From: Octopus vulgaris
Lineage: Eukaryota
DNA: 64,000 nucleotides
Assembly: GCA_951406725.2 (NCBI GenBank)
Contig: OX597814.1
Span: 166,594,001 to 166,658,000 of the forward strand
Direction of reading: 5' to 3'
Shown here one piece after another: positions 3,995 through 42,199 of the stretch. Position numbers and translations under genes: made by a program. The notes beneath the pieces are model-generated. The model was not told the origin of the DNA and did no database searches. It saw only the letters and a list, made by a program, of their open reading frames with translations. The first letter of the stretch is position 1, and each line of letters starts with the position of its first letter.

Positions 3995-4163
3995 TTCTTG
4001 AACTTCCCTTTCCTCTGAGCCATACTGCTCGGAAACTCTTCTCTCACAGCCTTGTTACATGCTGGTCCCCAATGAACCATTTCTGGAATGTTCAGCAGCA
4101 TACTAATTTTCTGAAGAAGTAGGTCACGTGATACATAACCTTTAGCACAGCCAACTAATAACT
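3995..4163 (-). CDS. Internal coding exon (169 nt) encoding the core of an RFX-like winged-helix domain
   Basis: Acceptor ttcacttcattattttcag| at 4164/4163, phase-compatible with the 39673 donor. Translates (E)LLVGCAKGYVSRDLLLQKISMLLNIPEMVHWGPACNKAVREEFPSSMAQRKGKFKK with no stops. NKAVREEFP..AQRKG matches the RFX pattern GKLIRSVF...RRLG. The exon ends at AA|ATATCCTTT. Confidence 0.8.
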
Positions 4164-4960
4164 CTGAAAATAATGAAGTGAAATTAATTTAAAAAACAAA
4201 AAAAAAAACTTGATAAATAGCAAAAAAAATAATGCTCTTTTCTGATTGAAATTTTAAATATTTTAATCAATAAATTAGTGCTAACATGCTATCTTAAAAA
4301 GAGAGGGTTGGCAATAATAAAGTATTCCTTCTCCCTAAGCATGTAAACTAGCTTTGAAAGATCAATTCATCATTTCTCGGAATTATCTTCCTTTACTTTG
4401 TATGTTACTTATAATAGCTGCCAGGATTTTTTCTGTCTCTCAAAGGGAAATTTCAATTATTTAGGACAGTTTTTGTTTACCATTTAACTTCTATTCACAG
4501 AGATTATTTAAACATATGCCTGATGGGTTAAATAGTAAAATAATCAAATGAGGGCACAAGAGGGTGAATTACAGAGAAGGTGCTGAGAATCATTGAAAGA
4601 AAGGATTCCTAATCATTTGGAAGCATTTACAGTTGTTTTGTAACCCCAGGCCAGCTGTGATTCAGTAAGGTTATTATAAAAGTATTCCAGCCATGACGAT
4701 CTAAAATGTCAAGCAGTGGAGAGAGAATAAACACAAAGAGACACAGATATAACCACAAATATACATGCAAACAAGGGGTGGAGGCACATGGCTTAAAAGT
4801 TAGGATGTTGGACTCATGATCGGAAGATTGTGGTTTCAGTTCTTGGAGTGGGCAATGCATTGAATTCTTAAGCAAAACACTTCATTTCACATTGCTCCTG
4901 ACCACTCAGCTGGTAAAAATGAATAATCCTGTGATATGGACTAGCATCTAATACAGGGAA

Positions 4961-5016
<56 letters not shown>

Positions 5017-5896
5017 TGGCTTGGCTTCATGAACAAATATCAGGAAGGCTGTCCACGTCGTGTGCATGCACACTCATGTCTGACAAGTCCTCTTGTGTCT
5101 CTTGTCTTTAAACGCGTCTCTTCTTTGTTCCTCAGACTCGCTGACTGCGTTGAAGATCGTGTGGAGCCAAAAAGCACCCACTACACTCACGGAGTGGTTG
5201 GGGTTAGGAAGGGCATCCAGCAGTAGAAACACTGCCAGATCAGACTAGAGCCTTACAGCCTCCTGGCTTCCCAGACCCCGGTCGAACCGCCCAACCCATG
5301 CTAGCATGGAAAGCGGACGTTAAACGATGATGATAATCATCATCATGTTACAGTATTCAATTTGGTGAATAAAATATAATTTTTTTAAAAACTATTATTA
5401 ATACAAATTTAGTCAGAAACTGTTTTTGTATTAGAGTAAACGGAAACACACACATTCATGGGCAGTGGGCCATGGTTATCCGGAATGTGGTGCTGGTACC
5501 ACCAACAGCCAGCAGTAACCAGAAATATGTAAGACAGCAAAACAATGTAAGATGGTATACATATGTATGTGTATGCAAGTATGTGTGCATATAGTTGCGT
5601 GTGTCTGCATGTGAGAGTCTGTTCTTTTATATATATGTGTGTTATCATTTGATGACACACCTACCACTTTAGCCAAAGTAGCAGAGGAATTTGAGTATGT
5701 TTTTAACTTCATAGTTGAGTGCGCAATTGTAGGAGTACATCCAAAGATGCCCCACAGAGTAAATTATATACCCCAGTTCATATGTTAATGTCAACATTTA
5801 CACAAGTTTCCACCAATTAACAATCATATATGTTCTATGTAATAAGAATAAATAAACATCAGATTGAGTGCATACATATCTGTGTATGTGTGTATG

Positions 5897-5941
<45 letters not shown>

Positions 5942-6072
5942 ATTTACTGAGACCATAAATACTAGGTTGGTATCTAGTACAAGATAACTCACCTCATGGG
6001 TAGATAGTCACTATTTTGTTCTGGCTGGCAAATTATCTAGGAGATGGAAAATTCTTACAAGAACACAACTAT

Positions 6073-6131
<59 letters not shown>

Positions 6132-6581
6132 TACATATATATAAATATGTATAGGAATGTATATGTGTATATATGTATGTATGTATATATATTATATATA
6201 TATGCATATATATATACATATGTACACATGCACACATACACACACGTACACATGCTGTTACTAGCTATATGGTTTATTTCATGGTAGTTATGAAGTTTGA
6301 TTCCGATACATAACACTACAATTTCTATATATAATAGCTATTAATAATACTAGTCATACATTGGTTAGTGTGGAGTTCCTCATTGAAAGCCACTGCAATG
6401 AGGACTCCTTGCTTGTTATATTAAGGATTTAAATTTAGGTGGCAGAAGTTCTAGGGGTTGCTTTGGTGCAGTTATCAGAATTTATGGCAGATATTCAATT
6501 CTTGTAGTTGATCATATAAACCTTTTCCATCTGATATATATACATATATACACACACACATATATACATATATATACATAT

Positions 6582-6780
6582 ATTTATTTTATAGAAGGAG
6601 CTTCTACAGGACTAGAACTGTTTCATTCAAAAGAAATCATCAGGAAGCTCTGATGATTTCTTTTGAATGAAACAGTTCTAGTCCTGTAGAAGCTCCTTCT
6701 ATAAAATAAATTAATTTACTCTGCTATGTATTGAGTACCTTATTTACTGTGGTTAACCCCGACTCAACCCGGGACCTACA
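6582..6780. mobile_element. Fold-back Penelope-like remnant in (TA)n
   Basis: Perfect inverted repeat 6582-6643 / 6650-6711 with a 6-nt loop, carrying hammerhead cores and flanked by TA/TACA microsatellite. Confidence 0.6.
6598..6650 (-). ncRNA. Type I hammerhead ribozyme motif (Penelope-like element derived)
   Basis: GAGCUUC-CUGAUGA-U UUC uuuu GAA U-GAA-ACAG uucuaguc CUGU-A|GAAGCUC: 7-bp stem I, 4-bp stem III, GUA triplet, predicted cut at 6605/6604. Lies inside a 62-bp-arm palindrome. Confidence 0.7.
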
Positions 6781-7682
6781 TATATATACATATATATATA
6801 TACATATATATATTTACATATATATATGCATATATATATACATATATACATACATACATACATACATACATACATACATACATACATACATAGTGAGAGT
6901 GAGCGGGGGAAAAAAGAGAAAGAGAGTGTAACTTTTATGTACAAATAGATGTATGATTGCTACAGTTATGTTTAGATTATCATCATCCAGTCTGCTTCTA
7001 TTATAGCAGTTAAGCAACTGCTATACAGAGCAAACATAGGTGAAATTACAATAAACACAAATTCATATTATTTGTTCCTATGCTCCAGCATGGCCACAGT
7101 CAAATGACTGAAACAAGTAAAAGAAAAAAAATATGTTTCACCATTGTAGTTATTTGTGCAATTGGTTGCTTAATATCAATGGATGACCAGGGAATACTTT
7201 ATGGCATTATGTTATAGAGAGCTAATGTCTGGAGTTGGATAGCTTTCTGGATATTTTATAAGTATTTGTGAGGGAAGTAGAGAAAGAGCTAAGAGCTTAA
7301 AAAAAAAGATAAAGAAGGATGAAGAGACAAGAGAAAGGGAGAGAGCATAAACAAAATAGAGAATAAAGAGAGGTAATATTTATCCATACTTAAATGTGGA
7401 TGTTCTGTTAGAACAAACAATACTGTGGTAAATACATGAGAGAAACTCTCATATTGGCTTTAGGTGCAAAATGTATTCTTGTTTACATTGCTAGCAGGGA
7501 GATAAATCTCCTCTACCTCCAGCACTGAGACCACCAGTCTTGACAATGATGGACACTCAACTGCTAGAGATAACAGTAACTCATCTACCTGCCAGTAATA
7601 TATAGAAAAACAGTGCCAGAACAGGAGCTGGTGTTGCAATTAGCCAGCAAGCTTGTTAAAAATATATAAGTGGCGTGTTAGG

Positions 7683-8626
7683 ATCTGTTCAATTTGGCTC
7701 ACGGATTTTTTTGAATAAATTTTTTTGAAACTCTGTATACTGGTGGAATTTCTCACACAGAACACAGTTTACTCTGAACATTTTTGACAAAATTTTGTAC
7801 TTTACAAGTTATTTCGTGTTAAAGTTGTCGTATTTGGGTAATTTTAGCCAATCAACAATGTGTATCCAGTTGAAAAAAGCTACTGCTGTTTATGATAGTA
7901 ATTGATGAGGAACAATTTCCGGGTCATCTCTACTAAATGTCACCACTCTGTTCTATTATATTTTTTGTTTACTGCCTGTGTTGCATATTTCACACCTTTT
8001 TCTTTGGTTCTCACATAGGAGTAACCAGTAAATATATAGAGCTACAGGTCCACAGCTAACTTTTATGTTGTTGACATGGATGTAGTTTCAAAATGCCTTA
8101 TTTTACAACTATGAGATGTATTATTGTTATGATTTTATCTTACTATAATCAACAACAAACACATTTCCTCAATATAAAAGTCTTTATTAGATTAAAAATA
8201 ACATTATCAAAACATGAAGGTAAAACAAATCTGCTTTGTTTTCTTCCAGGCATGCTAGTAGGGAGGAAAAGAGTAAGGAATGCAGGGTGCTGACTAGAAA
8301 GGAAGAAAGGATAAAGGTTGCATCATCTTCACTCGACATACGAATAGAACAGAGTGGTGACTTAGGAGAGTTGACCCGGAAGTTGTTCCTCTTTGATTAC
8401 TATCACAAACAGCTGTAGCTTTCTTCAACTGAATGCACATGTTGATCGGTTAAAATTACCCAAATATGACAACTTTAACATGAAATAACTTCTAAAATAC
8501 AAAATTTTGTCAAAAATGTTCAAAGTAAATGGTGTTCTGGGTAAGAAATTTCACCAGTATACAAAGTTTCAAACTGTTTAGTTAAAAAAAATTAATTAAA
8601 AAATCTGTGTGTCAAACTGAACAGAT
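7683..8626. mobile_element. Non-autonomous DNA element with ~175-bp inverted repeats
   Basis: 7683-7857 is the imperfect reverse complement of 8442-8626; no internal ORF. Confidence 0.7.
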
Positions 8627-8786
8627 AAGAAAGAAAGAAAGAAAGAAAGAATGAATGAAGGAAAGAAGGAAGGACAGAAAGAAGGGAAAGACTGATTTGG
8701 ACAACCGTAAAAAGGAGCGAACAAATAATAAAGTAACATTTAAACAAAATAATAAAGTAAAAATTGATATATATATCACCATCATT

Positions 8787-9240
8787 ATCATCATCATCAT
8801 CATTTAGCATTCGCTTTCCATGCTAGCATGGGTTGGACGGTTCAACTGGGGTCTGGGAAGCCAGAAGGCTGCATCAGGCCCAGTCTGATCTGGCAGTGTT
8901 TCTACGGCTGGATGCCCTTCCTAACACCAACCACTCCGTGAGTGTAGTGGGTGCTTTTTGGTGCCACCCGCACAGGTGCCAGACGGGTCTGGCAAACGCC
9001 CACAGACGGATGGTGCTTTTTATGTGCCACCAGCACGAGGGCCAGGTGAGGCTGGCAACGGCCACGAATGGATGGTGCATTTTACGTGCCACCGGCACGG
9101 AGGCCAGTCGGGGCGGCGCTGGCAACGGTCACAATCGGATGGTTTGCTTACTTGTCACCAGCACTGGTATCACAGCTGCAATTTCCATCGATGTTGATTA
9201 ACTTCGATTTTGGTTCTGCTTTCTGATATCTGATTTGATT
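8787..9240 (-). mobile_element. RTE-family 3' fragment
   Basis: Reverse complement of the same module. Further copies at ~60-306, 1365-1506, 5168-5345, 17920-18270, 45455-45810, 47236-47410, 54480-54835 and 63870-64000. Confidence 0.7.
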
Positions 9241-9256
9241 TGATATATATATATAT

Positions 9257-9450
9257 ATAGTTGAAAATTTACAGAAAAACAAAAAATGAAGCCAGGTGTA
9301 TAAACAATAAACAGGTGTATTAGTTAAATGCTTGGGAAGGTGAGAAAGTCTTTTACATTTCGAGCCTATGCTCTTCAACAGAAAGGAACATGAGGAAATA
9401 AACAGAGACAATAAAAAAAAATTCTGTAGCTAGCAGCCAATCATGGCAGC
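9257..9450 (-). mobile_element. Penelope-like terminal fragment, same family as 25597-25800
   Basis: Shared aaaaacaaaa..gaagacaggtgt..tattagt..aaagtcttttacgtttcgagcctacgctcttc..cagaaagg sequence; abuts (TA)n. Confidence 0.5.
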
Positions 9451-9549
9451 TGGCTGGACAATGGTAGTTAGACAGGAGAGCTAGGAAGAAGGGGAAATAT
9501 TTGGGCTTCAACGTAGCCAATGAACAGGTTCGCATAGATGGAATCCCTT

Positions 9550-9615
<66 letters not shown>

Positions 9616-10753
9616 CACACACACATGCACACACATATATAAATGAATACACCCAAGAAGGAAAGAAAGAAAGAAAGAAAAAAAGGAAGCATGGTGAGAA
9701 ACAGAGTACATAACAGAGGGAGGAGGAAGTAAGAGATTATTAAAAAAGTATTTCAAGTGGTCAATCTGTTAACTAATCCACTGAAACCAATAGAAATTGG
9801 AAAATGAATATAAACACAAATATACATAACTAAAGGAGTATGAAAAGGTCATGACCTTACACAGCATAAGTGTTCAAAGGTCAATTTGTATATTTAAAAA
9901 AGGACTAAATCTAAACACATATATTTTTAAGTATAAAACTATGGATTCATATAAACACACACCCACACAATATATATAAATATACACTCATGCACATCAT
10001 CATCATCGTTTAGCGTCCGTTTTCCATGCTAGCATGGGTTGGACAAAGCACATATGCATATATATTAGAAAGAGAGACTAGCCAGCAAGCTTGTTAAAAT
10101 ATGTAAATTAGCAACAGAGACAACATTAATACTGAGAGGTAATATTTATCCTCACTTGAACATGGATGTACTGTTTGGAACAAACTATACTGTGGAAGAT
10201 ACCATGAGAGAAACTCTCATAACGTGTGTGTCTAAGGAACACATAGGTGCCTCTCCAGTGTTACAAAAAAAAAATCATCCTGTAAAGTGGTTGTTGTTCT
10301 AAAAGGCAGCCAATCATAGAAACCAAACAAAATATGAACTATTGTGCTACCATCATCATCAGTGTTGTCCAATCGTTATTATATTCCATAAATCAACACA
10401 AATCAGAAGACTTTAGATATTCCATCAAATCAATACACTTCAATATAGGACAAATGTGAATATAAATGGCATCTGATATTATTTTCAGACTTTGAAGTTA
10501 AAAACAAAGAATTTCAGGCAAGACACGTAATGCAATATAAATAGAGAAGATAAACAGTTAAAAAAAAAACAAGGTAATAAGACAAAGCTGGAGTATACCA
10601 AGAAAAATACTTTTGGTATTAGGTGTGAAAAGTTACATCGTGTAAATTACAAATAAAAAACACGTAATTAAAAGAAATCTATTAAAAATTTAAGACCCTT
10701 TATGACTTTTGGACCACCCTGTATATGTATGTGTGTGTGTGTGTATATATATA

Positions 10754-10786
<33 letters not shown>

Positions 10787-10789
<3 letters not shown>

Positions 10790-10930
10790 GTGCAAGTTTA
10801 TAGAAAAACAAAAGACAAAGACAGGTGTATGAACAACAAACAGGTATATTAGTTTGACACATGGAAAAATGGAAAAGTCTTTTATGTTTCAAGCCTACGC
10901 TCTTCGACAGAAAGGAATAAGAGAAAATAA
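10787..10930 (-). mobile_element. Penelope-like terminal fragment, same family as 25597-25800
   Basis: Homologous to the 9257 and 25597 copies; CUGUCGA core; abuts (TA)n. Confidence 0.5.
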
Positions 10931-11219
10931 ACATCATCATCATCATCGTCATCGTTTAACATCCGGTTTGTATGCTGGCATGGGTTGGATGGTTTGACTG
11001 AGGACTGGTGAGCCAGAAGGCTGCACCAGGCTCCAATCTGATCTGGCAAAGTTTCTACAGCTGGATGCCCTTCCTAATGCCAACCACTCTGAAAGTGTAG
11101 CGGGTGCTTTTACATGCCACCGGCACGAGAGCCAGCCAGGTGGATGCTTTGAAAGATTATGACTGTGATCTCACTTTATTTGCCTATACCAGTGTCACAT
11201 AACCAGCCTATTTAAAAAG

Positions 11220-11770
11220 TACCTTTGAATTGTCAGGCAACATGCTATGCTTGAGGAGACCAACTGAGTCAAGTAAAATCAAAAATCAAAATAATAATCA
11301 GAATCTCAATCGAATCAAAATCAAAAATGGAAATTGTAGTTGTGGCCGATGTCAGTGTTTCCTGTCTGGCTCATGTGCTGGTGGCACACAATAAGCACCA
11401 TTCATGCATGGGTCATTGCCAGTGCTCCCTGACTGGCTCCCCATGCTGGTGGCGTGTAAAAGGTACCATCTGAATGTGGTCGATGCCATCACTCTGTCCC
11501 TACTGACTCCTGTGCCAATAGCACATAGAAAGTACCATTCGAACGTGGCTGATGCCAGTGCCACTTGACTGGCTCCCATGCCAGTGGCACATAAAAAGCA
11601 CCCACTACACTCTCGGAGTAGTTGGCATTAGGAAGGGCATCCAGCTGTAGAAACATTGCCAGGTTAGATTGGAGCCTGGTGCAGCCTCCTGGCTTGCCAG
11701 TCTCCTGTCAAACTGTCCAACATATGACAGCATGGAAAACAGACGTTAAACAATGATGATGGCAATGATG
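11220..11770 (+). mobile_element. RTE-family 3' fragment
   Basis: ORF-end remnant (atgctatgcttgaggagacc), tandem units and 3' module. An inverted copy lies at 10933-11150. Confidence 0.7.
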
Positions 11771-12119
11771 ACTTGTAAGTTATATATAAATGTAATTTGA
11801 CATTATATTGAACTGGGGTAGAATTGGGATAGAAAATAAGTGCAGATTCAAAATCAAAAACACAGGTTACAACAACATCAGTTTCAATGTAGAATTTCAC
11901 GTTAAGAATCTTCACAAAAATGAACTTAGCATGGTATTGTTAAAGGTGAAGTTTTATGAAAGATTCTTTTATTTTTTTTTAAACTACAATTATTCTAAAT
12001 AATAAACACACATGATATGCATAAATGATAGAGTGTAAGTGATTTGAGAGAAAAGCTGGGTATATGAGGCATCAGATGAAGCGTGCAAAAGAGAAGACTG
12101 TGTTGGTATAGCAATGTAA

Positions 12120-12506
12120 TACTCTTTACTTGTTTCAGTCATTTGACTGAGACCATGCTGGAGCACTGCTTTTAGTCGAGTAAATCGAGCCCAGGACTTA
12201 TTCCTTGTAAGCCCAGTACTTATTCTATCAGTCTCTTTTGCTGAACTGCTAAGTTATGGGGATGTAAACACACCAGCATTGGTTGTCAAGCGATGTTGGG
12301 GGGACAAACACAGACCCACAAACATACATATATATATTCATATATACGATGGGCTTCTTTCAGTTTCCATCTACCAAATCCACTCACAAGACTTTGGTCG
12401 GCCCGAGGCTATAGTAGAAGACACTTGTCCAAGGTGCCACGCAGTGGGATTGTACCCGGAACCATGTGGTTCGTAAGCAAGCTACCACACAGCCACTCCT
12501 ACACCT
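12120..12506 (-). mobile_element. SINE family A
   Basis: Full-length reverse copy. Confidence 0.85.
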
Positions 12507-12509
12507 AAT

Positions 12510-13350
12510 GTGGATTAATGAAGACAATTGCATCAAGCGGTGCTGATCTCTAATTTTGGAGGGAACATGTGGAAGCGGTAGACCCAGGAAGATGTGGGAT
12601 TAGTGGTGAGAAAGGAACTTCAGATGTTGGGCCTCACAGACAGGATGACAGGGGACAGAAACTCTTGGCAGTTTGTTGTACTTGAGAACACACATCAAGG
12701 CTAAGTAAAAGCATGATTGTCCTTGCATGCTGACATACTCTGCATCCGTCTCAAGCCAAGCATTTCTAATCATGCAGGCTCGTGGGTGCTGGTGCCATGT
12801 AAAAAGCACCCACACTGATGCCACATAAACACAACTATGCTGATGTTTTTTGTTTGTTCCTACTCAAGCCACGCCTGGCTCATAAGGGCTGATTTCCCGG
12901 TTTCCTTGGCATATAGGTTCCCCACCTGGACGGGATGCTGGTCCATCGCAGGTGAGCTGCAAAATGCAGGAGGAAAGCGTGAGAGAAAGTTGTGGCAAAA
13001 GAGTCAGCAGAAGTTTACCGTTACCTTCTGCTGGAGCTGCGTGGAGCTTAAGTGTTTCGCTCATAAATACACACATCGCCCGGTCTGAGATTCGAACCCG
13101 CAATCCCTCAATCGCAAGTCTGCTGCTTTAACCACTAGGCCATGTGCCTCCACAACTATGCTGAGGCCATGTATAAAGCACCCAGTACACTCTGTAAAGT
13201 GATTGGTGTTAGGAAGAGCATCCAGCTGTAGAAAACATGCCAAAACAGTCATGGCGCCAGGACAGCTCTTTGGCTGGCCAGCTCCTGTCAAACTGTCCAA
13301 CCCGTTTCAGAATGGAAAACTGAGGTTAAGTGACGATGATGATGATGATG
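12510..13350 (+). mobile_element. RTE-clade LINE 3' end with (GAT)n tail, interrupted by a SINE
   Basis: EGTCGSGRPRKMWD..VRKELQMLGLTDRMTGDRNSWQFVVLENT, followed by the abundant aaagcaccc..ttaggaagggcatccagctgtagaaa..gatgatg 3' module. Confidence 0.7.
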
Positions 13351-13559
13351 ACTGGTTCAGTTTCACTTCTTTATAATTATTCATTAATTGGTAAACTATT
13401 TAACCAACTAACTAATCAATTGTTTGATTACTCATTCAGTAAACCAATCAATCAGGTATGTTTGTCAAAGTCCTTTTGGAAAACCATTATCAAGAATCTT
13501 GCAAATCAAATACAAAAAATTAAATATTATTCTATAATTTTAGTTATTATGCTTTATAT

Positions 13560-13963
13560 GTGTAGGAGTGGCTGTGTGGTAAGTAGCTTGCTTATGAACC
13601 ACATGATTCCGGGTTCAGTCCTACTGCGTGGCACCTTGGGCAAGTGTCTTCTACTGTAGTCTCGGGCCAACCAAAGCCTTGTGAGTGGATTTGGTAGACA
13701 GAAACTGAAAGAAGACCGTCGTATATATGTATATGTGTGTGTGTGTGTATGTTTGTGTGTCTGTGTTTGTACCCCCAACATCGCTTGACAACTGCTGCTG
13801 GTGTGTTTATGTCCCTGTAACTTAGCGGTTCGGGAAAAGAGACCAATAGAATAAGTACTAGGCTTACAAAGAATAAGTCCTGGGGTCGATTTGCTCGACT
13901 AAAGGTGGTGCTCCAGCATGGCCACAGTCAAAATGACTGAAACAAGTAAAAGAGTAAAAGAGT
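13560..13963 (+). mobile_element. SINE family A
   Basis: Full-length copy. Confidence 0.85.
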
Positions 13964-16077
13964 ATGTGTACAAGTGTATAAAGAAATGTATACACATATA
14001 TAACTAATTCGCACACATGGAAATGAGCATATTTTTATCATACAATGTTGTTTTAGAATGCAGGAGAAATTCCAATTCTAATCTAGCAGTTTTAAATCAT
14101 GGACTATAAGCCTTTAATTACTAGAACACTTTTCATTTACGTCACTCCTCTTTTTTCCTTAATCCATTTCCTCCAAGACCACTGATTATTTAGTAAATAA
14201 GTGGATTGTAGTTTGCAAAAGATGTGGAGATAATTATTTAAGTTCTACTAAAAGTATGCACAAATCATTATACATATCTCAAGGGAAGCATATAATGAAG
14301 GAAAATTCCACAGTATAGTTAGAAAACTTAGTAGTGTGTAGGAAGAAACAGACTTTTACTTAAGGGCTATGAATAAACACAAATTGTGTATTCAAATGTG
14401 AGAGAATATCAAGAATAGCAAATAGATATAATTTAGGAAAAGATTGTTTGATGAAAGTTGCATACAGCTTGCTTTAAGTAGACCTACATGAACAGAACAT
14501 ATAAACTTAACAGAGCAAAGATTTCTCAGAGTAATAGATTTTTGGTTATATCTATCAGGCTTTATATGCAATAACAGTGACTGACAAAGGCGTAAATCTC
14601 TATTACTGACTCGTATAGCAACAGACTTTATTTACTTTGGTCATGGATACATTCAGACACTGAAGTGGTAGTTTGACTTTCTAATACAGATGATTGGTAG
14701 AATCTCTGAAGTGATTTCTGTTTTCAGAGAAGGTTTTACCATAGTTGAATAATTCTAGATCAGATGATTGATCATGCATAACATGTCATTCATGGAGGTC
14801 GGTCATGTTGATGTTAAAAATATGTAATTTCAAAAATAATTATTATTATCAAATGATTGTTGTTGCAAACATTTCGATTCTGTTTAGAGAAGGTTTCTGT
14901 CAATATTGAAATAACTAAGAAAACTATTTGTGAAATAATTAAAATCTCAATTTCAACAAACAGAAAAGCATGCTTTTCAAAGAGAAAGTCAATAGGAAGC
15001 AAACACTATTGAGAAATATGTTGAATGGTGTAGTTTGAAACTTGATAGTTAGGATGAATTTTATTGCATACACATAGTGGAATAAGTTGTTGTCAATGTA
15101 AACGCTTGTAAAGATTGTACTCATTCACTTTCAGTGAGATATAATGCTATTACAAAAATAATGAAAATAAACACAGCTTTGCAGCGTACAATATTTAAGA
15201 CTTTAACAGCAAGCAAAGGTAACGTAGTCTAGAAGTTAGGGTATTAGACTCACATCATAAAACCATGGAGTCAATTCCTGGAACCGGTAGTGCATTGTTT
15301 TCTTGAGCAAGGTACTTCATTTCACACTGCTCCAGTCTTCTTATCTGAAGAGAGTGTCAGCTAAGTGCTGGTGAGTTTAGCCTGCTATCTCTCCAGCAGT
15401 CACACCCCGGATGATTTGTTAGGCCAATTTTGGAAATTACAATCCCCACTTTCTTAATTTTCAAACAGGAAATGAAACATAATTTAAAAACAATAGCAAA
15501 TTTTTTTTTATGTTTTCATTCACCCCCATCCTCCCCATAAACCTGTAAAATATCAGCTTTTTTCAAAATTTTTTTTAATCATGGATTTAAAATATGGATA
15601 GTCTGAATCTGCAATTTGTTTCTAATTTCAAAATAATTTTCAGAAGAGGTGATTTAAGGGAGATTTAGTTGTTGTTTCTAGCACATTGCATGACTACTTG
15701 GTACCTTGCTCGTTTCTTTGTCACTCTGACATGTATTGATGTTTTTCAATATTTCCACCACTCCTATCCCCCACAAACATATTTTATGGAGTGATGATGC
15801 GGTGGTTTGTTACTGGGAAGCATGCAACAACACAAAAATTTCTTATATTAATCTTTAACCCCACACCTGCATCAAGTGGGACCATGTGTATGTGCATGTG
15901 TGTAAAAGAAAAACATTTTCTAACAAAAAAGCATGCTATTAAAATGAATCATCTTTTACATAACTTTTTAAAATCACATGCACACACACACATACAGAGT
16001 ATGAGCGATATACTTTTATAGAAAGTGAAAAAGTTTACAATCTGAAAATGAAAGAAATAGACAAATATACATACATA

Positions 16078-16113
<36 letters not shown>

Positions 16114-27550: not shown

Positions 27551-27613
<63 letters not shown>

Positions 27614-28222: not shown

Positions 28223-28255
<33 letters not shown>

Positions 28256-29770: not shown

Positions 29771-29939
29771 CCACCCTGCTACATCATCATTATCATCCAT
29801 ATCATCATCACCATTGTTTAAGGCCCACTTTCCATGCTGGCATAAATTGGACAATTTGACATGGAGCTGACCAACAGGGAGCTGTCCAGACTCCAATTGT
29901 CTGTTGTGGCATTGTTTCTATAGCTGGATGTCCTTCCTA

Positions 29940-30966: not shown

Positions 30967-31340
30967 TTTACTCTTTTACTTGTTTCAGTCATTCGATTGT
31001 GGTCATGCTGGAGCACCGCCTTTAGTCGAGCAAATCGACCCCCAGGACTTATTCTTTGTAAGCCTAGTACTTATTCTATTGGTCTCTTTAGCCGAACCGC
31101 TAAGTTACGGGGACGTAAACACACCAGTATCAGTTGTCAAGCAATGTTGAGAGGACAAACACACACACACACATATGACGGGCTTCTTCCAGTTTCCATC
31201 TACCAAATCCACTCACAAAGCCTTGGTCGGCTCGAGGCTATAGTAGAAAACACTTGCCCAAGGTGCCACACAGTGGGACTGAACCCGGAACCATGTGGTT
31301 GGTAAGCAAGCTACTTACCACACAGCCACTCCTACGCCTA
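30967..31340 (-). mobile_element. SINE family A
   Basis: Full-length reverse copy. Confidence 0.85.
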
Positions 31341-32204: not shown

Positions 32205-32832
32205 CTCAGCGAACTGGTAGAAACATTAGCATGCCGAGCAAAATGTTTAGCGGTATTTCATCTGCCATTACATTCTGAGTTCAAATTCTGCCGAGGTCGA
32301 CTTTGCCTTTCATCCTTTCGGGGTCGATAAATTAAGTACCAGTTATGCACTGGGGTCAATGTAATCAACTTAATCCGTTTGTCTGTCCTTGTTTGTCCCC
32401 TCTGTGTTTAGCCCTTTGTGGGTAGTAAAGAAATAGGCATTTCATGTCTTTAAATTCTGAATTCAAATTCCGCCAAAGTCAACTTTGCATTTCATCCTTT
32501 CAGGGTCGATAAATTAAGTACCAGTTGCGTACGGGGGTCGATCTAATTGACTGGCCCCCTCCCCAAAAATTTCAGGCCTTGTGCCTAGAGGAGAAAAGAA
32601 TACTAATATTGTAGTAAGGCAGCGAGCTGGCAGAAACATTAGCATGCCAGGCAAAATGTTTAGCGGTATTTCGTCTGTCTTTATATTGAGTTCAAATTCT
32701 GCCAAGGTCGACTTGGCCTTTCATCCTTTCGGGGTCAATAAATTAAGTACCAGCTACATACTGGGGTCAATCTAATCGACTGACCCCTTCTCCAAAAATT
32801 TCAGGCCTTGTGCCTAGAGTAAAAAAGAATAA
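32205..32832 (+). mobile_element. Cluster of SINE family C copies
   Basis: Three copies of the same central domain. More at 36700-36900, 37233-37447, 52880-53490 and 57670-58190. Confidence 0.8.
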
Positions 32833-33099
32833 TAATATTGTAGTTAACATTATTGATGATGAGAATTATGCTGATGATAATTCTTCTTAACAGCTTAGTT
32901 GTCATTTGTAAGTGAATATGAACAGATAGCAGTGTACCATGCTTTAGGTACCTACCTATAAAGTCTTTAGCAGACATAGATATTGTCTCAGTTTCACACC
33001 CTTGATTCAGGGGAACATCAAAGATGTGTAAGCTGGAGGGAGAGACAGCTGCACCAAGTCAGTTATTGCCATTTTCAGCAGAGTAGACAAACAATATGA

Positions 33100-33157
<58 letters not shown>

Positions 33158-33559
33158 TAATGAAATTATTGTATACAGTACTCAGGTGCACCAAAACTTG
33201 TCAAAAGTGCGTATAAAGCATATGACGTAATGTACAAATGTCTGGGAAGTGAACAGTGTATGAGTCAGATACATGTTTGCATGCGCATGGAGGGAAGAAA
33301 ATCAGGTGTAGTGTTGGCAAATCTCAGGAAGCATGGAAGTTTTGAAGGATGCAATGCTCGGACAACTAACAACTGATGCCGGCAGTTTGTTCCATGCTTC
33401 AGCAACTCTTAGCATGAAAAAATGTTTCCAAAAGTCATGGGAGCTGTGCTGTTTTCTGACTTTGTAAACATGTCCATGGGTGTTAGACAGATGGAGTTTG
33501 AAAAGGTGCTCAGAGTTATTGTTTGTAAGATGGTTAATAATTTTATGGATGTCTGCCAA
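33100..33559 (-). mobile_element. CR1-clade LINE 3' end with (ATT)n tail
   Basis: HKII..THGHVYKV..KHFFMLRVAEAWNKLPASVV..SIASFK. Confidence 0.85.
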
Positions 33560-33769
33560 TGTTATGTCTTACTCAAGAACCTAATGAGTCTAAGAATTGA
33601 ACCAATGAACTTTTGACCACAAATCCAACACCATAACCACTAGGTTTTGCAACACAATGCAGCACAATTTTTTCATCTATTTACTGAGATACAGATATTC
33701 AAGTGTTCCAAAAATCCAATGAACACCTGACTAGATAGTTCCAAGTCAAATTATCTCATAGCAAAATAT

Positions 33770-34715
33770 GAGGTGGTATCAAAAAGTTCCCAGACTAGAT
33801 CAGTAGTGTACCAACAGATGGCAGCACAGGGTTGCTTGCACAGTAAGAGCTAGCAGTGACCTTCGTGAGGCAGTGTACCAAGTGACATTGCTGTGTTTAC
33901 TTCACAAGTTGTGAAATTTGTGCTTTTCTGATCACATGTATAATGTAGTCTGCAACTTTGCCATTGATAGGAACAAAGAGCCAACGTGAAATTTTGTGTT
34001 AAACTTGGGAGGGCTGCCACAGAGACATTGAGCATGCTTTGGCAAGTTTGTGGTGATGAAGCAATAGACCGTACACAATGTTTCAAGAAGCACAAGTGCT
34101 TCAGAAGTGAAAGAATATCCCTGAAAGACATCGGAGACCCCCTTTGGTCACGACACAGACCATGGGATTGCACCTAGAAAGTTATCCTCCCAGGCACAAG
34201 TCTGGGCAAGGTTGTTTTATGGAAGACCAGTAGTCGCCCATGCATAACGACCTCCCCTCTTCACACCACCAGTGTTATACAAGGGAAAGGCAAAGGTCGA
34301 TACAGATTGGCACCTGTGACATCGCAACTCATTTCTACAGCTGAGTGAACTGGGGCAACGTGAAATGAAGTGTCTTTCTCAAGAACACAACACACAGCCC
34401 GGTCCTTGATGCTCTAACCACTGAGCCATGCGCCTTCACACCTGGAAGACAACGGTTGATCTAAAAGACCTGTCACGAGTGTCACCCCCAGAAATGTGGT
34501 ATTTTGCATTGAGAATTCATCCTCCCCAGTGCCAGACTGTCAATTGAGAGTTCTATTGCAATGTTTTGAAGTGTTTGAGGAAGGACATTCAGCAAAAGTG
34601 ACTGGATCAGGTGAGTGTGAAGAATTGGATTCTTCGTGATGACAAAGCACCCTGTTACTGAGCTCTCCTCACTCATGAGTTTCACATCAAAAACATGGTG
34701 TCATTTCTGCACCCA
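33770..34715 (+). mobile_element. Internally deleted mariner, interrupted by a SINE
   Basis: TIR-like gaggtggtatcaaaaagttccc; N-terminal HTH EQRANVKFCVKLGRAATETLSML; later NWILRDDKAPC and HPLY fragments. The SINE at 34135-34440 has a ~15-bp TSD (34120-34134 / 34441-34455). Confidence 0.75.
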
Positions 34716-35681
34716 CTCTACCACCACCACTACCACTACCACCACTGCCTCCACCACCGCTGCTGCTGCCACCACCACCAGCATCATCATTTAATGTCCA
34801 TTTTCCATGCTGGCATGAGTTGGACAGTTTGACAGTGGCTGGCTAGGCAGAAGACTGCACCAATTCACTGTATATTTTGGTAAGTTTTCATGGTTTTTAC
34901 AGCTGAATGCCCTTCCTGTCACTAACCACCTTACAGAATGGACTGTATGTGCTTTTTATGTGACACCAGCATAATATAGATATGTATATAAATATATGGA
35001 TAAACAGATGCATCAATACACAAAATCACACACACATACATGCACACACACACACCTTATGCAACTCTTCTATGTATATTATAATTGTTCAATAGTTGTG
35101 AAAGGAGAGGACCAATATAAATACGATGAACTGCTACAAGAGAAATGCAAAAAGAATCATATGATAAAACAAAACATTTACCAAACAATTATAGAATGGT
35201 AACTGATTGCCAAATCTATTAGCTAGTGTCTACAACTTAATTCTAAACTATAACAATTGAACACCAGAACACTATAAAAGTGATAATATATGTACTGACA
35301 AAACTGATTAGAAAACCAAGTATCGAATGGCTATTCGGGGCTCAACTTCCATTCTGTTGTTAGTATTGCTATTGTGTTTGGAACAAACATATTCTTTAAT
35401 TATTGGCAACATAGAATTAGTTTCATCCAAAAGAAATCCATTAATCTGATTGTTGATATCTCAATGAGAATCTGCTATCTCTAACACATCAGTGTATGTT
35501 CTCTGGTGTGTCTACAAAATCTACAGCAAAATCTTCAGCTTACTGTTTTTATTTAACGATGATGATGATGATGATGATGATAATAATAATAATAATAATA
35601 ATAATGATAATAATAATAATGATAATAATAATGATAATAATAATAATGATAATAATGATGATGATGATGATGATGATGATG

Positions 35682-35877
35682 GAGTTCTATATTTAAGAGA
35701 TGAGGAATTATGTACATTATTTACATTATTTACATTTGACGGATATTTGTCCTCATTTTGTTTGTTGTTAACACAACATTTTGGCTGATGAAGGCTGGAG
35801 GGTATATCAGCCGAAACATGTTAACAACAAACAAGATGAAGACAAATATCTGTCAAGTGTAAATAATGTAAATAATA
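35682..35877. mobile_element. Fold-back Penelope-like remnant with truncated hammerhead
   Basis: Inverted arms ~35713-35773 / 35819-35876 around CTGATGAAGGCTG..CAGCCGAAAC. Same family as 61836-62058. Confidence 0.6.
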
Positions 35878-35960
35878 ATGATAATTATCATCATCATCAT
35901 GGCTCTGCATTTGTTTTTCCATGAGTATGTCTAAGTATTTCCTTTATTTTTATTTTGTGT

Positions 35961-36022
35961 TCCTCACTGATGAAGGAAGAATCCTTTTTGGATTAATCCA
36001 GAAATCGGAACTGATTTGGGGA
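35961..36022 (+). ncRNA. Type I hammerhead motif with extended stem II
   Basis: UCCUCA-CUGAUGA-A GGA ag AAUCC uuuuu GGAUU aa UCC A-GAA-AUCG gaac UGAU-U|UGGGGA; all three helices can pair (some G-U pairs). Confidence 0.65.
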
Positions 36023-36643
36023 TAACTATATTTTTATGAATTTCTGTTAGCTTACTTTCCTCATTTCAGTATGTGGTTAGACGATTTAGCATCTATTTTT
36101 CAGTATATTGGCAAAGAAAAAATTTTCATTTTGCCCTTATAATTGTGCATGTGTGAGAGGGAGAGAGAGAGAGAGAGAGAGAGAGTGCATGTGTGCGTGT
36201 GTGTTTGTGTCTATGTTTGTCCCTCCCTACCATTGCTTGACAACCGATGTTAGTGTGTTTGCATCCCCGTAAATTAGCTGTTCGGCAGAGGAAACTAATA
36301 GAATAAGCACCAGTTTTACAGGGAATAAAGTGTGGTGCTCCTGTATGGCCAGTGTCAAATGATTGAAACAAGTAAAAGAATAGAAGAATACCAGATGAAC
36401 GTTCCGTACCACTAAACCAAGATAGTTCTTTGAGTATGTACGATGTATTTAAAGGCTAAATAGTAATTCTGTTTACGTTTGCATAACAGATATTTTTGTT
36501 GGATTATATAGTTATCGGTTTTACATTTCTTTCTATGTTCAGTAACTGTCACAATACAGAAACATTTCTCATGGCACCAGCACAAAATTTACAGATGCTT
36601 ACATTTTTTATGTTTGCCATGAATTTTTCATGAGTCCAGCTAG

Positions 36644-36695
<52 letters not shown>

Positions 36696-36945
36696 CATTA
36701 AGGTGGCGAGCTGGCAGAATTATTAGCACACCAGGCAAAATACTAAGCTGTTCGTCTTTACGTTCAAATTCCACCGAGGTTGACTCTGCCTTTCATCCTT
36801 TCGGGGTCAATGAAATAAGTACCAGTTACAAACTAGGATCAATGAAATCGACTATTCCCCTCCCCCAAATTGCAGCCCTTGTGCCTATAATAGAAAAGAT
36901 TATTATTACTATTATTATTATTACTATTATTATTATTATTATCAT

Positions 36946-37125
36946 TCAGTAGTTTTATTTTTATAGCGTGCTTTCACTTCACTACTGAGCTCTGTGTGCC
37001 TTGGGTATGTGCTGTGATTTGTTGTGATGCCCTGATGGTTATTGTATGGAAAGTGCTCTGCGTAGGATGTGTGCAGTGCCTAGTAGTGCAATTTTCTGTA
37101 TGTTATATGTGTTTGTAAGTCCTGG

Positions 37126-37127
<2 letters not shown>
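36946..37127 (-). mobile_element. R4/Dong-like (RLE) LINE 3' end in (TAA)n
   Basis: PGLTNTYNIQKIALLGTAHILRRALSIQ-stop, flanked by ATT repeats. Second truncated copy at 37848-37967. Confidence 0.75.
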
Positions 37128-37172
<45 letters not shown>

Positions 37173-37817
37173 ATTGTTATTGTTGTTGTTGTTGTTGTTG
37201 TTGTTATTGTTATTATTATTATTATTATTATTAGGCAAGCTGGCAGAATTGTTAGCATGCTGGGCAAAATTCTTAGTGGTATTTTGTCTGTCTTTTCATT
37301 CTGAGTTCAAAATCTACCACGGTTGACTTTGCCTTTCAGCCTTTCGAGGTCGATAAAATAGATAACTAGTTAAGCATTGGGGTTGATGTAATCAACTTAA
37401 CCCATGGCCACTTGAAATTGCTGGCCCTGAGCCAAAATTTGGAACCATTATTATTATGATCATTTGTTATCACCATTGATGTCATCATTATCATTAAACA
37501 TTATCTTTATACAAGCTGCGCCAAAGTTTCAAGTAAAAATGGCAAAAAGGACAACAAAATTTTGCATCTAAAGAAGTTAACAGGTGAGGTACCAAACAAC
37601 TAAAAAAAAACTGATAACTGTGTGTTAAAAAAAAAAAACATTGCATTTATATGGAGAGGAATTTATGTGAGGTACCTATGAATATGGTTGTTAGCAATTC
37701 ACTTATTTTGGGGCAGCTAGGAAGTTGATCCACATATTTGTTTGCTTTGTTTGATATCATTCCAAATGCCCTGATAACAATAGATAACATTAAGGTACCA
37801 CATTCTTCTGATTGCAA

Positions 37818-37851
<34 letters not shown>

Positions 37852-37963
37852 TAGTTTTATTTTTATAGTGTGCTTTCACTTCACTACCGAGCACAGCTCT
37901 GTGTGCCTTGGGTATGTGCTGTGATTTGTTGTGATGCTCTGATGGTTACTGTATTGAAAGTGT

Positions 37964-38016
<53 letters not shown>

Positions 38017-38033
38017 CATCATCATCATCATTA

Positions 38034-38333
38034 TCTGTTTGACTTTTGCTTTGTATTTGTACAAGTTGGCTCCAAGTCCCACCCAGAGACCTCAAGAGAC
38101 AACAAGTTAGAAGTTCATGTCGGTGTTATGCCTAGGGTGTCATATATTTGGTTTTGCACATAGTATTGTTCTAGAGAATTTTAAAATTATGAGTGTGTTA
38201 GATTACATAGACAGTATTTTACGTAGGATATGGACAGTGCCCATGAGCACTATCTTTAGAATTTCTGCCATTTTGAAGTTTCCTGGTACTTGAGCTAAGT
38301 AGCAATCAGCCCCTTTTGCTATCATTCCTAGGA
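38034..38333 (-). mobile_element. Second R4/Dong-like family 3' end
   Basis: VLGMIAKGADCYLAQVPGNFKMAEILKIVLMGTVHILRKILSM-stop, between ATT/CAT repeats. Confidence 0.7.
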
Positions 38334-38340
38334 CATTCAT

Positions 38341-38371
<31 letters not shown>

Positions 38372-38996
38372 CCACCACCACCACCACCACCACCATCACC
38401 ACATCATCATCATCATCATCATCATTATCATTATTATTGGCTGCATTTACATTCATTGGCACTTGCCAATCTATTTTTCATTATCTTGCAACAAGCTTTA
38501 TATGCTAACTTTTGTTTCCTGAAATATTTTGCTCAGTAGAGCTTCCTTTTGTCTATTAATATCCAAAGTTTCAAACCTCATATTAACCACAGTACTGTCA
38601 ATCATCTATCTCCTTGACACTTTTTTTCTTATAATGCTAAAGAGAAAAGCAAAATGGAACAAAATTCAAGAAGTAGTGATATGTTAACAAGCAACAATGT
38701 AGGACTGTAAATGTGCTATAAATTATGATCTGTAAATTTATCACAATCATACAAGCTGCGTTATACAACAGGAAAAATTAAACATAGTCATCCACACACA
38801 ACTTTAAAAGATTCCTAATTTATTCAGCAAGACAATTAGGTGTTCTGTTAAAAGGAAATTACAAGGCAATTAATAATTGTGTTGTTATAATTAATTATTA
38901 TTTTGCTAGAAGGTGAAATGACTATAAAGTTGAGTGCTGTGCAAACATCATCCACAGTAACAAAGATATTTGTATAAATTTAATTTTAAAAAAATA

Positions 38997-39372
38997 TCTC
39001 TATATATATAAACGGCAAAATGTCTGTCTCTGTGTGTGTGTGTGTATCCTTTATACAAATCCACAAGTTTTCAGTTAGAGGGCTCGCACTTTCTATGGTC
39101 ATTCAAAACCGTCTAAGGGTGGTCATGCACATCTTTACATTACCCCAGTCACCCCGCAAAGCGATTAAAAAATCAATAGAAGTGACTTTTTTGTGAATTT
39201 TCTATCCAAAACCCAATCAAAATGCTCGAAACTTGATACGCCAATTGAATGCCAGCTAGCTGTATGTGATTGGTCGGAGATTTGGACAGTACTCGCATGT
39301 ATGTGCGCACGCATGCAACTGTATATGCATGCACTAGTAGTATGACCTGGCATTGCCAGGTCATAGTGCTAG
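38997..39372 (+). mobile_element. Non-autonomous Helitron
   Basis: A|TCTCTATATATATAAA start, 3' hairpin tatgacctggca-t-tgccaggtcata, then CTAG|T. Confidence 0.8.
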
Positions 39373-39672
39373 TTTATTTATAAACACTGGAAGAGACACT
39401 TCAAGATTGTAGAATATAATCCTATAAGAAAAAACATCTAACCCCCAAAGAACAATGAAAGCAGACATAAATACCATATGAATAAAACTAGGGCAGGAGG
39501 AGTAGTGGGTAAATTACAAAAAGAAAAATTTGCATCAAACTGCTAACTTAATAAATATCACCAAATATTTTACATCTGCAATACACAGAACAATCTAAAA
39601 TGTAAACTTAATTTTGAAACATGAATTTTTCAAAATGTCTACTTAAAAATGAATTTATGCTGAAATACTTAC

Positions 39673-42199
39673 CTGGTAAAACCTCCTTAATTTTTAACAT
39701 CTTCCAGTATTCTCCGTGAACAGACTTCCCTGAAGAATCCGTAATGTTAGCATCAAGAAGATCAGAGTCATGTTCTCGAATGAAATGCTCCTCATAGTCT
39801 CGTATGTCATAGCAGACAAAATCACAAAATGAGCATCGGTAAATTCCTTTAAGGCCAATGTCATTTTCACTTTGGTCTTCAGGTTCAGTTTTTATAGTTG
39901 TCCCCAAAACTTTCTCCAAGCTCTGAGAAGTGGACATGGACTGGTTTGGATGTATGAGCAAGCTTTCAACAACAGAAGATAACATACCTAACGAATCTAC
40001 AGCCTGTGGAAAAGTTTGTTCCATAGAAGAGAACTGAGTCTGATTCTCCAGAACATCTTGATTGTTACTACTAGAGCTTTGTTTATTTGTAAAGCTTCTG
40101 TCGGAGGTATCTTTTGTCTTTTTTAGTGGAGGGAAGTCTTTACTTTGTTCATTAACAGTTTGATCAGAACTGCTCGCATGAACTTGATTTTTGTCTTCTT
40201 TAGACTTACAAGAAAGTTTTTCGAGTGAAGAATTTTCACCAGCAGTTAACGACATATTATCAGCAGTTTTTTTATTATTTTTACTTGAGTTAAACTCCTC
40301 GTCTGAATCTGAATCAGACCAAGAGGTTGTCAGCTGTGGTTGATGACGTACAGCCACAGGAGCATGTCGCTTACGCCTCTGTCGAGGAGCAGACTCGCGG
40401 TCAGAATTTGGTTCACCATCACTAGTTACCTCTTGACTCTTTGTTTCTTTATCCAGTTCATTGTCAGAAACCTCTTTTGGGGTGTCACTAGAAACTGGTG
40501 ACAGCCGTTCTCCTCCCAAAGGAATATTTGTTGCATGAGATCTTGAGTTTGGTTGGGTACTTGGCTGAGTAACACTATTATCGTCCGAGTCTGTTTTACA
40601 GTTATTACTATTATGGGAGCTGCTTGTGGTAGCATTATTTGTATCATTGTTGCTAGAATCTTCTAATAAAGAAGTGGGAGAATAGGCTGAGGAGGAAGAA
40701 GAAGATGTAAGTGAAGATGGCATAGAAGAATAACTGGACACTTTCTTTGTTGAAACATAGTTACCATTACTGTTTGAGGGACAATGAGATGATTCTCTTT
40801 TGAAATTAGGAGACAATTTTTGTTGTGGTTGTTGTGGCTGTTTTTGCTGTTGATGCTGTTTCTGATGATGGGATTGTATGTTCTGATGTGATGAATGTAT
40901 ATTTGTTTGTGGGGGTATTGGATGGGGTAGAGATTGTGAATGTGTAGGTAGAGGTGGGAGGGTTGTGAGCTGTTGTTTGTGTTGTTGTTGTTGCGATTGA
41001 TGATGGTGTTGTATCTGTTGGTCAGAAGACACACTTCTATCAGCAGTCTCGACACGCGCCCGATGCTGGTAACTCGAACAATGGCTTAAGAAAGCCGCAC
41101 GTGCCTGACACTTACAGTTACACACCTGGCAAAAATAAACAATGTTGCCACCTTCTCGGATCAGCTTAGTGTACTTACCAAAGTCATGTGTGTAACTTGG
41201 GTTTGACATAGCACTATGGAAGCCAGAGGAATTTCCACCTGCATGTAGCCGAGTGTTTGATATCAGAATTTGATCTGCTAGCTGCTGAAGACGTGTTATA
41301 TTTTCTTCCATAGTCATTTTCTCTGGTTTCACGCTATCTTTGACAGAATTTACACTGATCTTGTTATTGCTGTTACTATTAGCGCAGCCGTTGCTACTGT
41401 TATTATTAACAGATATATTTGTACCAGTACTACTACTGCTGCTAGCTACACTGTTACCATTAACTTGCCCAAATAACGGTGCTGAGGGTGCCAGTTGTCG
41501 CTGCTTCCCATGGACTGTATCCATGACAAATCGCGATGTCCGGTACTGCATCGTCTTGTTGGGATCACTTATTGTACACTGATTTTCTGTACTGATTTCA
41601 GTTCCGCTCTTATTGGTAAATTCATCGATAGGTGAAGCTTCAGGAGAGTCTAATTCAGTATCAGAAGTTTCAATGCCATGAGAAAAACGGCAATGTGCAC
41701 GGAGATCTTCTTCAGTACTAAAGTTGAAATTGCAATGTTGGCAATCTTTATAAGATTGCTTTTTTGTTAAGTGTTGGTCATTGACATGGCTAATGAAGCT
41801 ATCCCGTGATGTCAGAATAGATGGCAGAGTTGTACACAAAGTACATTTGTATAAGATTTCAGCAAATTTCATCAAGTTCTCAACAGAGTGTCCAAGAACT
41901 TTATCAAGCAGAAAGTTTTTCTGATTACTAACATCTGAGGATTCCTTAAAACAACTTTTAGATTCTTGACTCGTAGAAAATGTTTGGTTCCCACCACTTT
42001 TCGCAGACATGGTAAAATCCACATTGGAATTCGACCCGTTAAGAAGTAATTTTGAAGAATTTTTATAGTTTGGACTAAAATTACAGGAACCGAGATCTTT
42101 GTCATCTTCAGTTTTGATTTTTATATGGCATTGGTTTGTAGAATCAACAACAGAGTTTGAGCAACTGTTGGTAAGATGGTTATACATGACAGCATGCAT
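39673..42199 (-). CDS. Large first coding exon of an uncharacterised zinc-finger transcription factor (4 dispersed C2H2/matrin-type fingers plus the start of an RFX-like winged helix)
   Basis: 863-aa ORF in the track. Fingers: YKCTLC..HVNDQH, DCQHC..HCRFSH, YFCQVC..HCSSYQH (matrin/U1-like spacing), YRCSFC..HFIREH. Also a basic NLS-like RQRRKRH, two IKTE SUMO-type motifs and Q/S/N-rich linkers. An in-frame TGA upstream of ATG 42199 supports it as the start. A strong donor CCAG|GTAAGT at 39673/39672 (phase 1) means the last ~20 aa of the track ORF are probably intronic. Confidence 0.9.

Follow-up and report, generated by a model that had tools for sequence, protein, structure and literature searches.

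An octopus zinc-finger gene with two predicted RFX-like winged helices, each split in its wing by an AT-AC intron

The window analysed here is a stretch of 64,000 nucleotides (nt) of the Octopus vulgaris genome (G000:C1:166594001-166658000), and it holds on its minus strand the first part of a gene for a protein with four dispersed zinc fingers and, in its C-terminal part, two tandem RFX-like repeats. Judged from the sequence and its homologues, a structure of six coding exons is practically certain, and the last four of these exons lie outside the window. The parts of the gene are as follows (two-dot coordinates are those of the window, the others those of G000:C1).

39673..42199, minus strand: coding exon 1, 842 codons and 1 nt; four zinc fingers, long low-complexity spacers, a basic motif like a nuclear localisation signal (NLS), and the first helix of repeat 1
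4164..39672, minus strand: intron 1, GT-AG, phase 1, 35,509 nt, full of repeats
3995..4163, minus strand: exon 2, 169 nt; core of RFX-like repeat 1 (strand 1, helices 2-3 and the first wing strand)
1..3994, minus strand: 5' part of intron 2, U12-type AT-AC, phase 2, 12,722 nt, continuing outside the window
G000:C1:166585272-166585139, minus strand: exon 3, outside the window
166581532-166581358, minus strand: exon 4, core of repeat 2, outside the window
Between exons 4 and 5, minus strand: intron 4, U12 AT-AC, 1,485 nt
166579872-166579827, minus strand: exon 5, outside the window
166568677-166568471, minus strand: exon 6, carrying the stop codon, outside the window

Exon 1 opens with an ATG at 42199, ends at a phase-1 GT donor after 39673, and is 100% identical to a deposited O. 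vulgaris gene model; a pyrimidine tract and an AG precede exon 2, whose first base is 4163. An earlier sequence-only reading of the window had joined 39673 to 4163 across some 35.5 kb, and this join is borne out by the RefSeq models of two other Octopus species and by contiguous open reading frames (ORFs) on short contigs. The joined peptide is that of the O. sinensis RefSeq protein P0002 and of the O. bimaculoides model P0049, and an Argonauta model makes the corresponding join. On a 1,280-nt Logan contig, a cephalopod-like ORF of 345 amino acids (aa; P0138) runs across the equivalent junction and all of the later ones, and a second such ORF (P0145) was found on a 1,376-nt contig; both are independent of genome annotation. 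Oyster ORFs of 960 aa lie on contigs of 3.2-3.5 kb. Short contigs with contiguous ORFs would most simply be spliced transcripts. The spacing between the conserved motifs flanking the junction is 11 residues in 39 of 41 pattern-matched homologues and 12 in the other two, in a count that includes isoforms and near-duplicates.

Other products of the locus were considered and rejected. A tblastn search with 58 long homologues returned from intron 1 only the read-through of exon 1 itself, and an intervening coding exon was therefore discarded. The single-ORF read-through at 39608 and the deposited O. vulgaris models P0003 and P0050 were not accepted as the true product either: their GT-AG joins cut conserved domains, and both deposited models miss the AT-AC introns, losing all or part of the domains. 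Exon 1 occurs in 20 listed sequencing runs, none of them recorded as RNA, and these were not used as evidence. The intron length of 35,509 nt agrees with the earlier estimate, is ordinary, and is already present in the RefSeq models; the splice itself is not new, as gene models with it are already in databases. Two AGs resembling splice acceptors precede the ATG (window 42201-42300, minus strand), one by 2 bases and the other by about 80 nt, so untranslated exons upstream of the ATG are probable.

The sequence-only reading had the domain behind this junction end at 3995. The join was correct and the end was not: the last strand of the domain is encoded 12.7 kb further on, and a second repeat follows. 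Exon 2 ends at a U12 AT-AC donor, ATATCCTTT, at position 3994. The six coding exons amount to 3,258 nt and 1,085 aa, with one residue different from P0002. Both AT-AC introns (2 and 4) have CCTTAA branch sites near the acceptor, and the 9-mer donor occurs three times in 264 kb of the gene's strand, two of these exactly at the exon ends in question. Two introns interrupt each repeat: one of GT-AG type, in phase 1, follows the first helix, and one of U12 type, in phase 2, falls in the wing. Since both repeats have the same pair of introns, the repeat appears to have been duplicated together with them. The U12 donor is found family-wide: the 86 distinct wing contexts comprise 41 that are spliced, 40 in which the frame runs on into the donor-encoded Tyr-Pro, and 5 of other kinds, including two read-throughs without the Tyr-Pro signature. 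Repeat-1 exons reading through without Tyr-Pro were seen in P0110, P0111 and P0127, for which a U12-to-U2 conversion within one lineage is possible.

The main acceptor of intron 2 (G000:C1:166585272) is followed 3 nt downstream by another AC, and in both O. sinensis (P0048) and O. bimaculoides (P0053) RefSeq isoform X2 is without exactly one Thr, at the position of RFX Y67. By its sequence, this acceptor pair is a NAGNAG-like choice at a minor intron, and its use would alter the wing. The full-length protein would need the minor spliceosome twice.

The zinc fingers and the NLS-like motif lie in exon 1 as follows.

41771..41845, minus strand: zinc finger 1, C2H2 pattern with a long loop, aa 119-143
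41678..41743, minus strand: zinc finger 2, C2H2, aa 153-174
41063..41131, minus strand: zinc finger 3, C-x2-C-x12-H-x5-H, aa 357-379, with a conserved motif in front
40358..40378, minus strand: basic NLS-like motif, aa 608-614, its pattern present in 13 of 25 homologues
39770..39835, minus strand: zinc finger 4, C2H2, aa 789-810

Three C2H2 patterns and one C-x2-C-x12-H-x5-H are thus present, as the sequence-only reading had it, and four dispersed fingers are the usual layout among homologues. In 24 of the 25 homologues examined, a finger with the spacing of zinc finger 1 comes first, and the motif upstream of finger 3 was likewise found in 24. Finger 3 is one that we take to be matrin-type from its matrin/U1-type spacing; Pfam gives only weak zf-met/jaz/KIN17 scores for it, in orthologues. 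The basic motif may serve in nuclear import. The two C-terminal repeats, about 80 residues each and together spanning roughly aa 828-1016, are homologous to each other (hhalign probability 99.7, 43% identity), are joined by an acidic linker predicted to be unstructured, and are followed by about 70 poorly conserved residues. An AT-hook-like motif stands after repeat 2 in 10 of the 25 homologues (P0005, P0009, P0010, P0013-16, P0022, P0033 and P0044), none of them from a cephalopod; a CtBP-type motif in 7 of the 25, again none in cephalopods, was not used. The name Ser/Thr protein kinase carried by Octopus records was rejected, as Pfam gives no kinase domain; it most likely stems from low-complexity similarity.

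The predicted fold of both repeats is that of the RFX DNA-binding domain. An AlphaFold model of the tandem region was built from 18 sequences, with a predicted local distance difference test (pLDDT) score of 84 and a disordered linker, and a separate model of repeat 1 was built for the Argonauta orthologue from 27 sequences (pLDDT 93). The models give the order helix-strand-helix-helix-strand-wing-strand of an RFX-type winged helix. In structural comparison with 48,161 chains, the repeat-1 model best matched RFX5 (8zjr; Z 10.5, root-mean-square deviation (rmsd) 2.9, 80 residues aligned) and RFX1 (1dp7; Z 9.0, rmsd 2.6, 72 aligned), with the next match at Z 6.5. Residues 101-183 of the tandem model, which form repeat 2, gave RFX5 at Z 10.5 (rmsd 2.9, 80 aligned), RFX1 at Z 8.7, and the next match at 6.8. 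RFX5 and RFX1 therefore take ranks 1 and 2 for both models, with other folds at 6.8 or below. Foldseek placed RFX5 first for repeat 1 (template-modelling (TM) score 0.70, E 1.5e-3) and third for the tandem model. With these models, an RFX-type fold of each repeat is very probable. The earlier claim of an RFX-type winged helix behind dispersed fingers is thus upheld in kind, by fold prediction, fold search and a minor-intron position shared with RFX5/7, and amended in number, since there are two such domains and not one.

The intron position was established by comparison with the octopus RFX genes. RFX-domain matches occur at nine places in the octopus genome (loci L022-L030, on G000 C4, C5, C15 (two), C18 and C27), and these yield one gene like RFX1/2/3, one like RFX5/7 and three like RFX4/6/8, besides a weak ARID2-like candidate; none of them shares a contig with the gene described here. 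The RFX1/2/3, RFX4/6/8 and ARID2 names are ones that we assume from sequence features; the RFX5/7 name does not depend on this assumption. In both repeats the wing intron is in phase 2 and falls five codons ahead of the conserved last-strand Gly. An intron at exactly this codon and in this phase interrupts the octopus RFX5/7-like gene, within a Lys five codons before the Gly; it is of U12 GT-AG type, and its donor, branch site and acceptor were all identified. At this wing codon the three RFX4/6/8-like genes carry a U2 donor, and the wing intron of RFX1/2/3 lies four codons earlier. RFX5 and RFX7 are reported as minor-intron genes (bioRxiv 10.64898/2026.08.20.745718). Because minor introns make up less than 0.5% of introns, as given in PMC2831892, yet share codon and phase here, placement by chance would be very unlikely. 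On the strength of this shared U12 intron, descent of the repeats from an RFX gene is highly probable. The source could be an early RFX5/7 or RFX4/6/8 gene; it is not nameable, because the other intron position is unshared and residue 19 is Arg, as in RFX1-4/6. Since change from AT-AC to GT-AG to U2 is described as the favoured, not exclusive, direction (PMC2831892), AT-AC may be the earlier condition of the RFX wing intron.

Homologue searches returned 44, 23, 42 and 66 proteins, the last set coming from a full hidden Markov model scan of 1.84 billion representatives and including one spurious repeat protein. The named homologues all come from cephalopods, bivalves, gastropods, one chiton and the brachiopod Lingula; each is either uncharacterised or wrongly named. 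Many other matches are unnamed single-exon fragments of undetermined phylum, which makes this range a lower bound; no named arthropod or deuterostome match was returned, which is weak evidence of absence. The tandem region of the octopus matches that of Haliotis at 74%. A genome search with exon 2 gave only exon 2 and exon 4 among the matches listed, and the octopus gene is probably single-copy. P0135, a divergent relative of 962 aa, resembles the family in its first finger and carries one domain only, which scores weakly as RFX (E 0.19, model positions 14-76). P0135/P0116 has one RFX-like domain with a more RFX-like wing, which is continuous in an 11-kb contig whose other pieces look intron-interrupted; this suggests loss of the minor intron, and P0135/P0116 may be a pre-duplication or reduced form. 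In literature searches, none of the titles and abstracts returned described the gene family, although supplements could list these genes; passages of PMC10225672 mention Rfx6 only, and the term 'RFX' does not occur in PMC12513265.

RFX1 is described in PMC12311785 as touching DNA through nine residues: R19, K45, R48, R57, R58, G60, R62, K66 and Y67. Repeat 1 keeps the equivalents of R19, K/R45, R48, R58, G60 and K66. Repeat 2 keeps R19, R48, R58 and G60 and has Arg at position 45, Lys at 57 and Thr at both 66 and 67. The R19, R48, R58 and G60 equivalents are invariant in both repeats in the 18-sequence alignment from which invariance was taken, as the anchoring pattern itself fixes part of the position counts for R19 and R57-Y67. 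The Gln of repeat 1 at position 57 is invariant as well (18 of 18 sequences), which speaks for a different contact pattern kept by selection, not for decay. According to PMC12311785, RFX5 with this Arg-to-Gln replacement (R149Q) binds less well, and the replacement is a cause of disease.

It is likely that the protein binds DNA. RFX dimers bind X-boxes, as stated in PMC10530576, and RFX5/7 are described in PMC2533330 as being without dimerisation domains. An RFX DNA-binding domain with its wing minor intron would have joined a zinc-finger gene and would then have been duplicated in tandem, with both flanking introns, before the split of molluscs and brachiopods. Each wing would enter a major groove, as the wings of RFX1 and RFX5 do, and the covalent pair on its flexible acidic linker would stand in place of an RFX dimer. 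The two unequal wings would read two unequal half-sites, and the zinc fingers and disordered regions would recruit partners. Sequence-specific binding of the tandem pair to a motif other than the X-box is somewhat more likely than not, and the altered specificity that this implies is suggested by the wing sequences. Taken as a whole, we lean towards a single-copy gene of molluscs and a brachiopod, with two RFX-type domains likely taken from an RFX gene and acting as a one-chain pair that reads a non-X-box motif.

Several results weigh against this reading. At the curated cut-off, Pfam RFX_DNA_binding matched none of 17 full proteins and none of 18 tandem stretches, so that the Pfam search proposed in the sequence-only reading gives no match for the octopus protein; a Pfam scan of the window's own pieces gave no match either. 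Weak RFX scores were obtained for 6 of the 18 tandem stretches (best E 0.0012), with NAMPT_N about as good in 5 of 18, and PDB sequence searches with both family profiles returned no RFX chain. The profile comparison fared no better for repeat 1, whose hhalign score against five octopus RFX domains (14.6) falls short of the highest score from 60 column shuffles (16.8); for repeat 2 the score is 24.0, just above its best shuffle (22.9). No Foldseek match reached E 0.001 for repeat 1 or the tandem model, and the ESM Atlas gave no usable match for the tandem region and only sub-0.9 zinc-finger leads for P0138. With a predicted TM score of 0.48, the tandem model gives no support for a set arrangement of its domains. 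RFX shares just one of the two intron positions per repeat, the phase-1 intron and the internal RFX introns being unmatched, and the subtype is AT-AC in the repeats versus GT-AG in octopus RFX5/7. As to DNA contacts, the mapping follows our ungapped register and not a printed structural alignment, and in it repeat 1 changes R57 to Q and Y67 to T and has a two-residue deletion, hence a shorter wing, around R62; with three changed contacts, binding might be weak or non-specific.

RFX proteins are defined in PMC2873420 by a DNA-binding domain at least 40% identical to known RFX domains and by all nine DNA-contact residues. The octopus and Lingula repeats, compared with three octopus RFX domains over three ungapped blocks (53-54 positions), are 13-25% identical to them; repeat 1 has six of the nine contacts, and repeat 2 has four identical and two conservative, if the nine of PMC12311785 are the same as those of PMC2873420, as we assume. 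Because both values fall short, the family is RFX-like, working like and likely descending from an RFX, and is not a member of RFX.

The changed contacts would also fit RFX-like domains that act as docking modules for chromatin or other proteins, with little sequence specificity, in a subunit of a chromatin complex, as the RFX-like domain in ARID2 is commonly assumed to do. Chromatin adaptors typically have fingers that are dispersed and not arrayed, which counts for this view. So do the three changed contacts of repeat 1 and the two lost, one changed and two conservatively replaced contacts of repeat 2, together with the accounts that the RFX5 domain also touches histones (PMC12311785) and that ARID2 keeps five of the nine contacts (PMC2873420). 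In both repeats, however, the basic wing and helix-3 residues do not vary across the range from octopus to Lingula, and the difference between the two wings is a fixed one, suggesting defined base or backbone contacts, so that a docking role is rather unlikely. A protein that still reads X-box half-sites, modulating or competing with canonical RFX at its targets, e.g., ciliary genes, would account for the retained equivalents of R19, K/R45, R48, R58 and G60 and for RFX5/RFX1 being the closest folds; the altered Y67 and R62 positions in both repeats, and the Gln at R57 of repeat 1, a change that lowers RFX5 binding, make it improbable.

Two further explanations concern the origin of the domain and its ligand. 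With regard to origin only and not function, the domain might come from a mobile element with an RFX-type winged helix (the origin-binding domain of a transposase or primase) or might be convergent, given that the sequence similarity of repeat 1 to RFX is at noise level and that the phage P4 origin-binding and African swine fever virus primase domains are among the lower fold matches (Z 5-6.6). This is largely refuted by the U12 intron at the codon and phase of RFX5/7, and RFX5 and RFX1 stand 2-4 Z units above other folds; we consider it very improbable. Binding of RNA by the matrin-type finger and the winged helices is scarcely credible: finger 3 does have matrin/U1-type spacing, and the RNA-binding winged helices of La and LOTUS proteins do appear, far down the fold lists (Z < 5), but the best-ranked folds are RFX domains bound to DNA, and 10 of the 25 homologues have an AT-hook-like motif after repeat 2. 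In comparison with these alternatives, we retain the covalent pair of RFX-type domains with a non-X-box motif.

Other features of the window were also recorded.

21114-21557, plus strand: mariner-type transposase fragment in intron 1 (Pfam Transposase_1, E 1.3e-20)
28259-28328, plus strand: marginal Rfam match to transfer RNA (tRNA; 30.8 bits, cut-off 29), the sole Rfam match in the window and probably a tRNA-derived repeat
56072-56419, plus strand: fragment that we presume to resemble the C-terminus of a long interspersed nuclear element (LINE) ORF; Pfam gave nothing useful
58316-59012, plus strand: tandem-repeat open frame

Among known systems, ARID2 (BAF200) also has C2H2 fingers, and the new family differs from it in giving no ARID match in any of the 17 proteins scanned with Pfam. 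The ARID2-like candidate of the octopus is on a different contig; its wing codon is not interrupted by an intron, and the basic wing motif is missing from it. The likeness lies in a divergent RFX-like domain that falls outside the RFX definition, in ARID2 with 29% identity and five of nine contacts (PMC2873420). The RFX1/2/3 and RFX4/6/8 proteins (PDB 1dp7) have the same predicted fold (Z 8.7-9.0) and Arg19 and Arg48 in common with the new protein, and the octopus RFX4/6/8-like genes have an intron donor at the same codon, but of U2 type. They differ in having one domain with B/C/D dimerisation regions, in an identity of 15-25% to the new repeats and, for octopus RFX1/2/3, in a wing intron four codons earlier. 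For the B, C and D domains, P0002 gave no Pfam match beyond one spurious weak one, in a scan without a dedicated profile search.

RFX5/7 (PDB 8zjr; Pfam PF02257) come closest: they are the best fold match of both repeats, the octopus gene has a U12 intron at the same wing codon and phase, and no dimerisation domain is evident in Pfam behind the repeats, for which no separate search was made. In contrast to RFX5/7, the new protein has two C-terminal domains and four zinc fingers in front, a shorter wing, 13-22% identity in the aligned blocks, AT-AC in place of GT-AG introns, and Arg in place of Lys at position 19. RFX factors are described in PMC10530576 as having one nearly invariant DNA-binding domain and three animal subfamilies. 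It is possible, though we put it forward tentatively, that lophotrochozoans hold an unrecognised fourth branch of the RFX lineage: a duplicated, covalent and asymmetric two-domain reader of a new motif, perhaps with the ancestral AT-AC intron, and controlled twice by the minor spliceosome, including a 3-nt acceptor choice that removes the residue at the base-reading Y67 position. If true, an RFX domain was reused in a new architecture, retuned, and then strongly conserved across molluscs and a brachiopod. Domain-based catalogues of cephalopod and bivalve transcription factors miss such a family, which is invisible to Pfam, named a kinase in Octopus, and broken in many of its models at the AT-AC introns; the gene is a testable candidate regulator. 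The intron shared with RFX5/7 offers a clean case of a minor intron serving as a marker of homology where sequence similarity has decayed.

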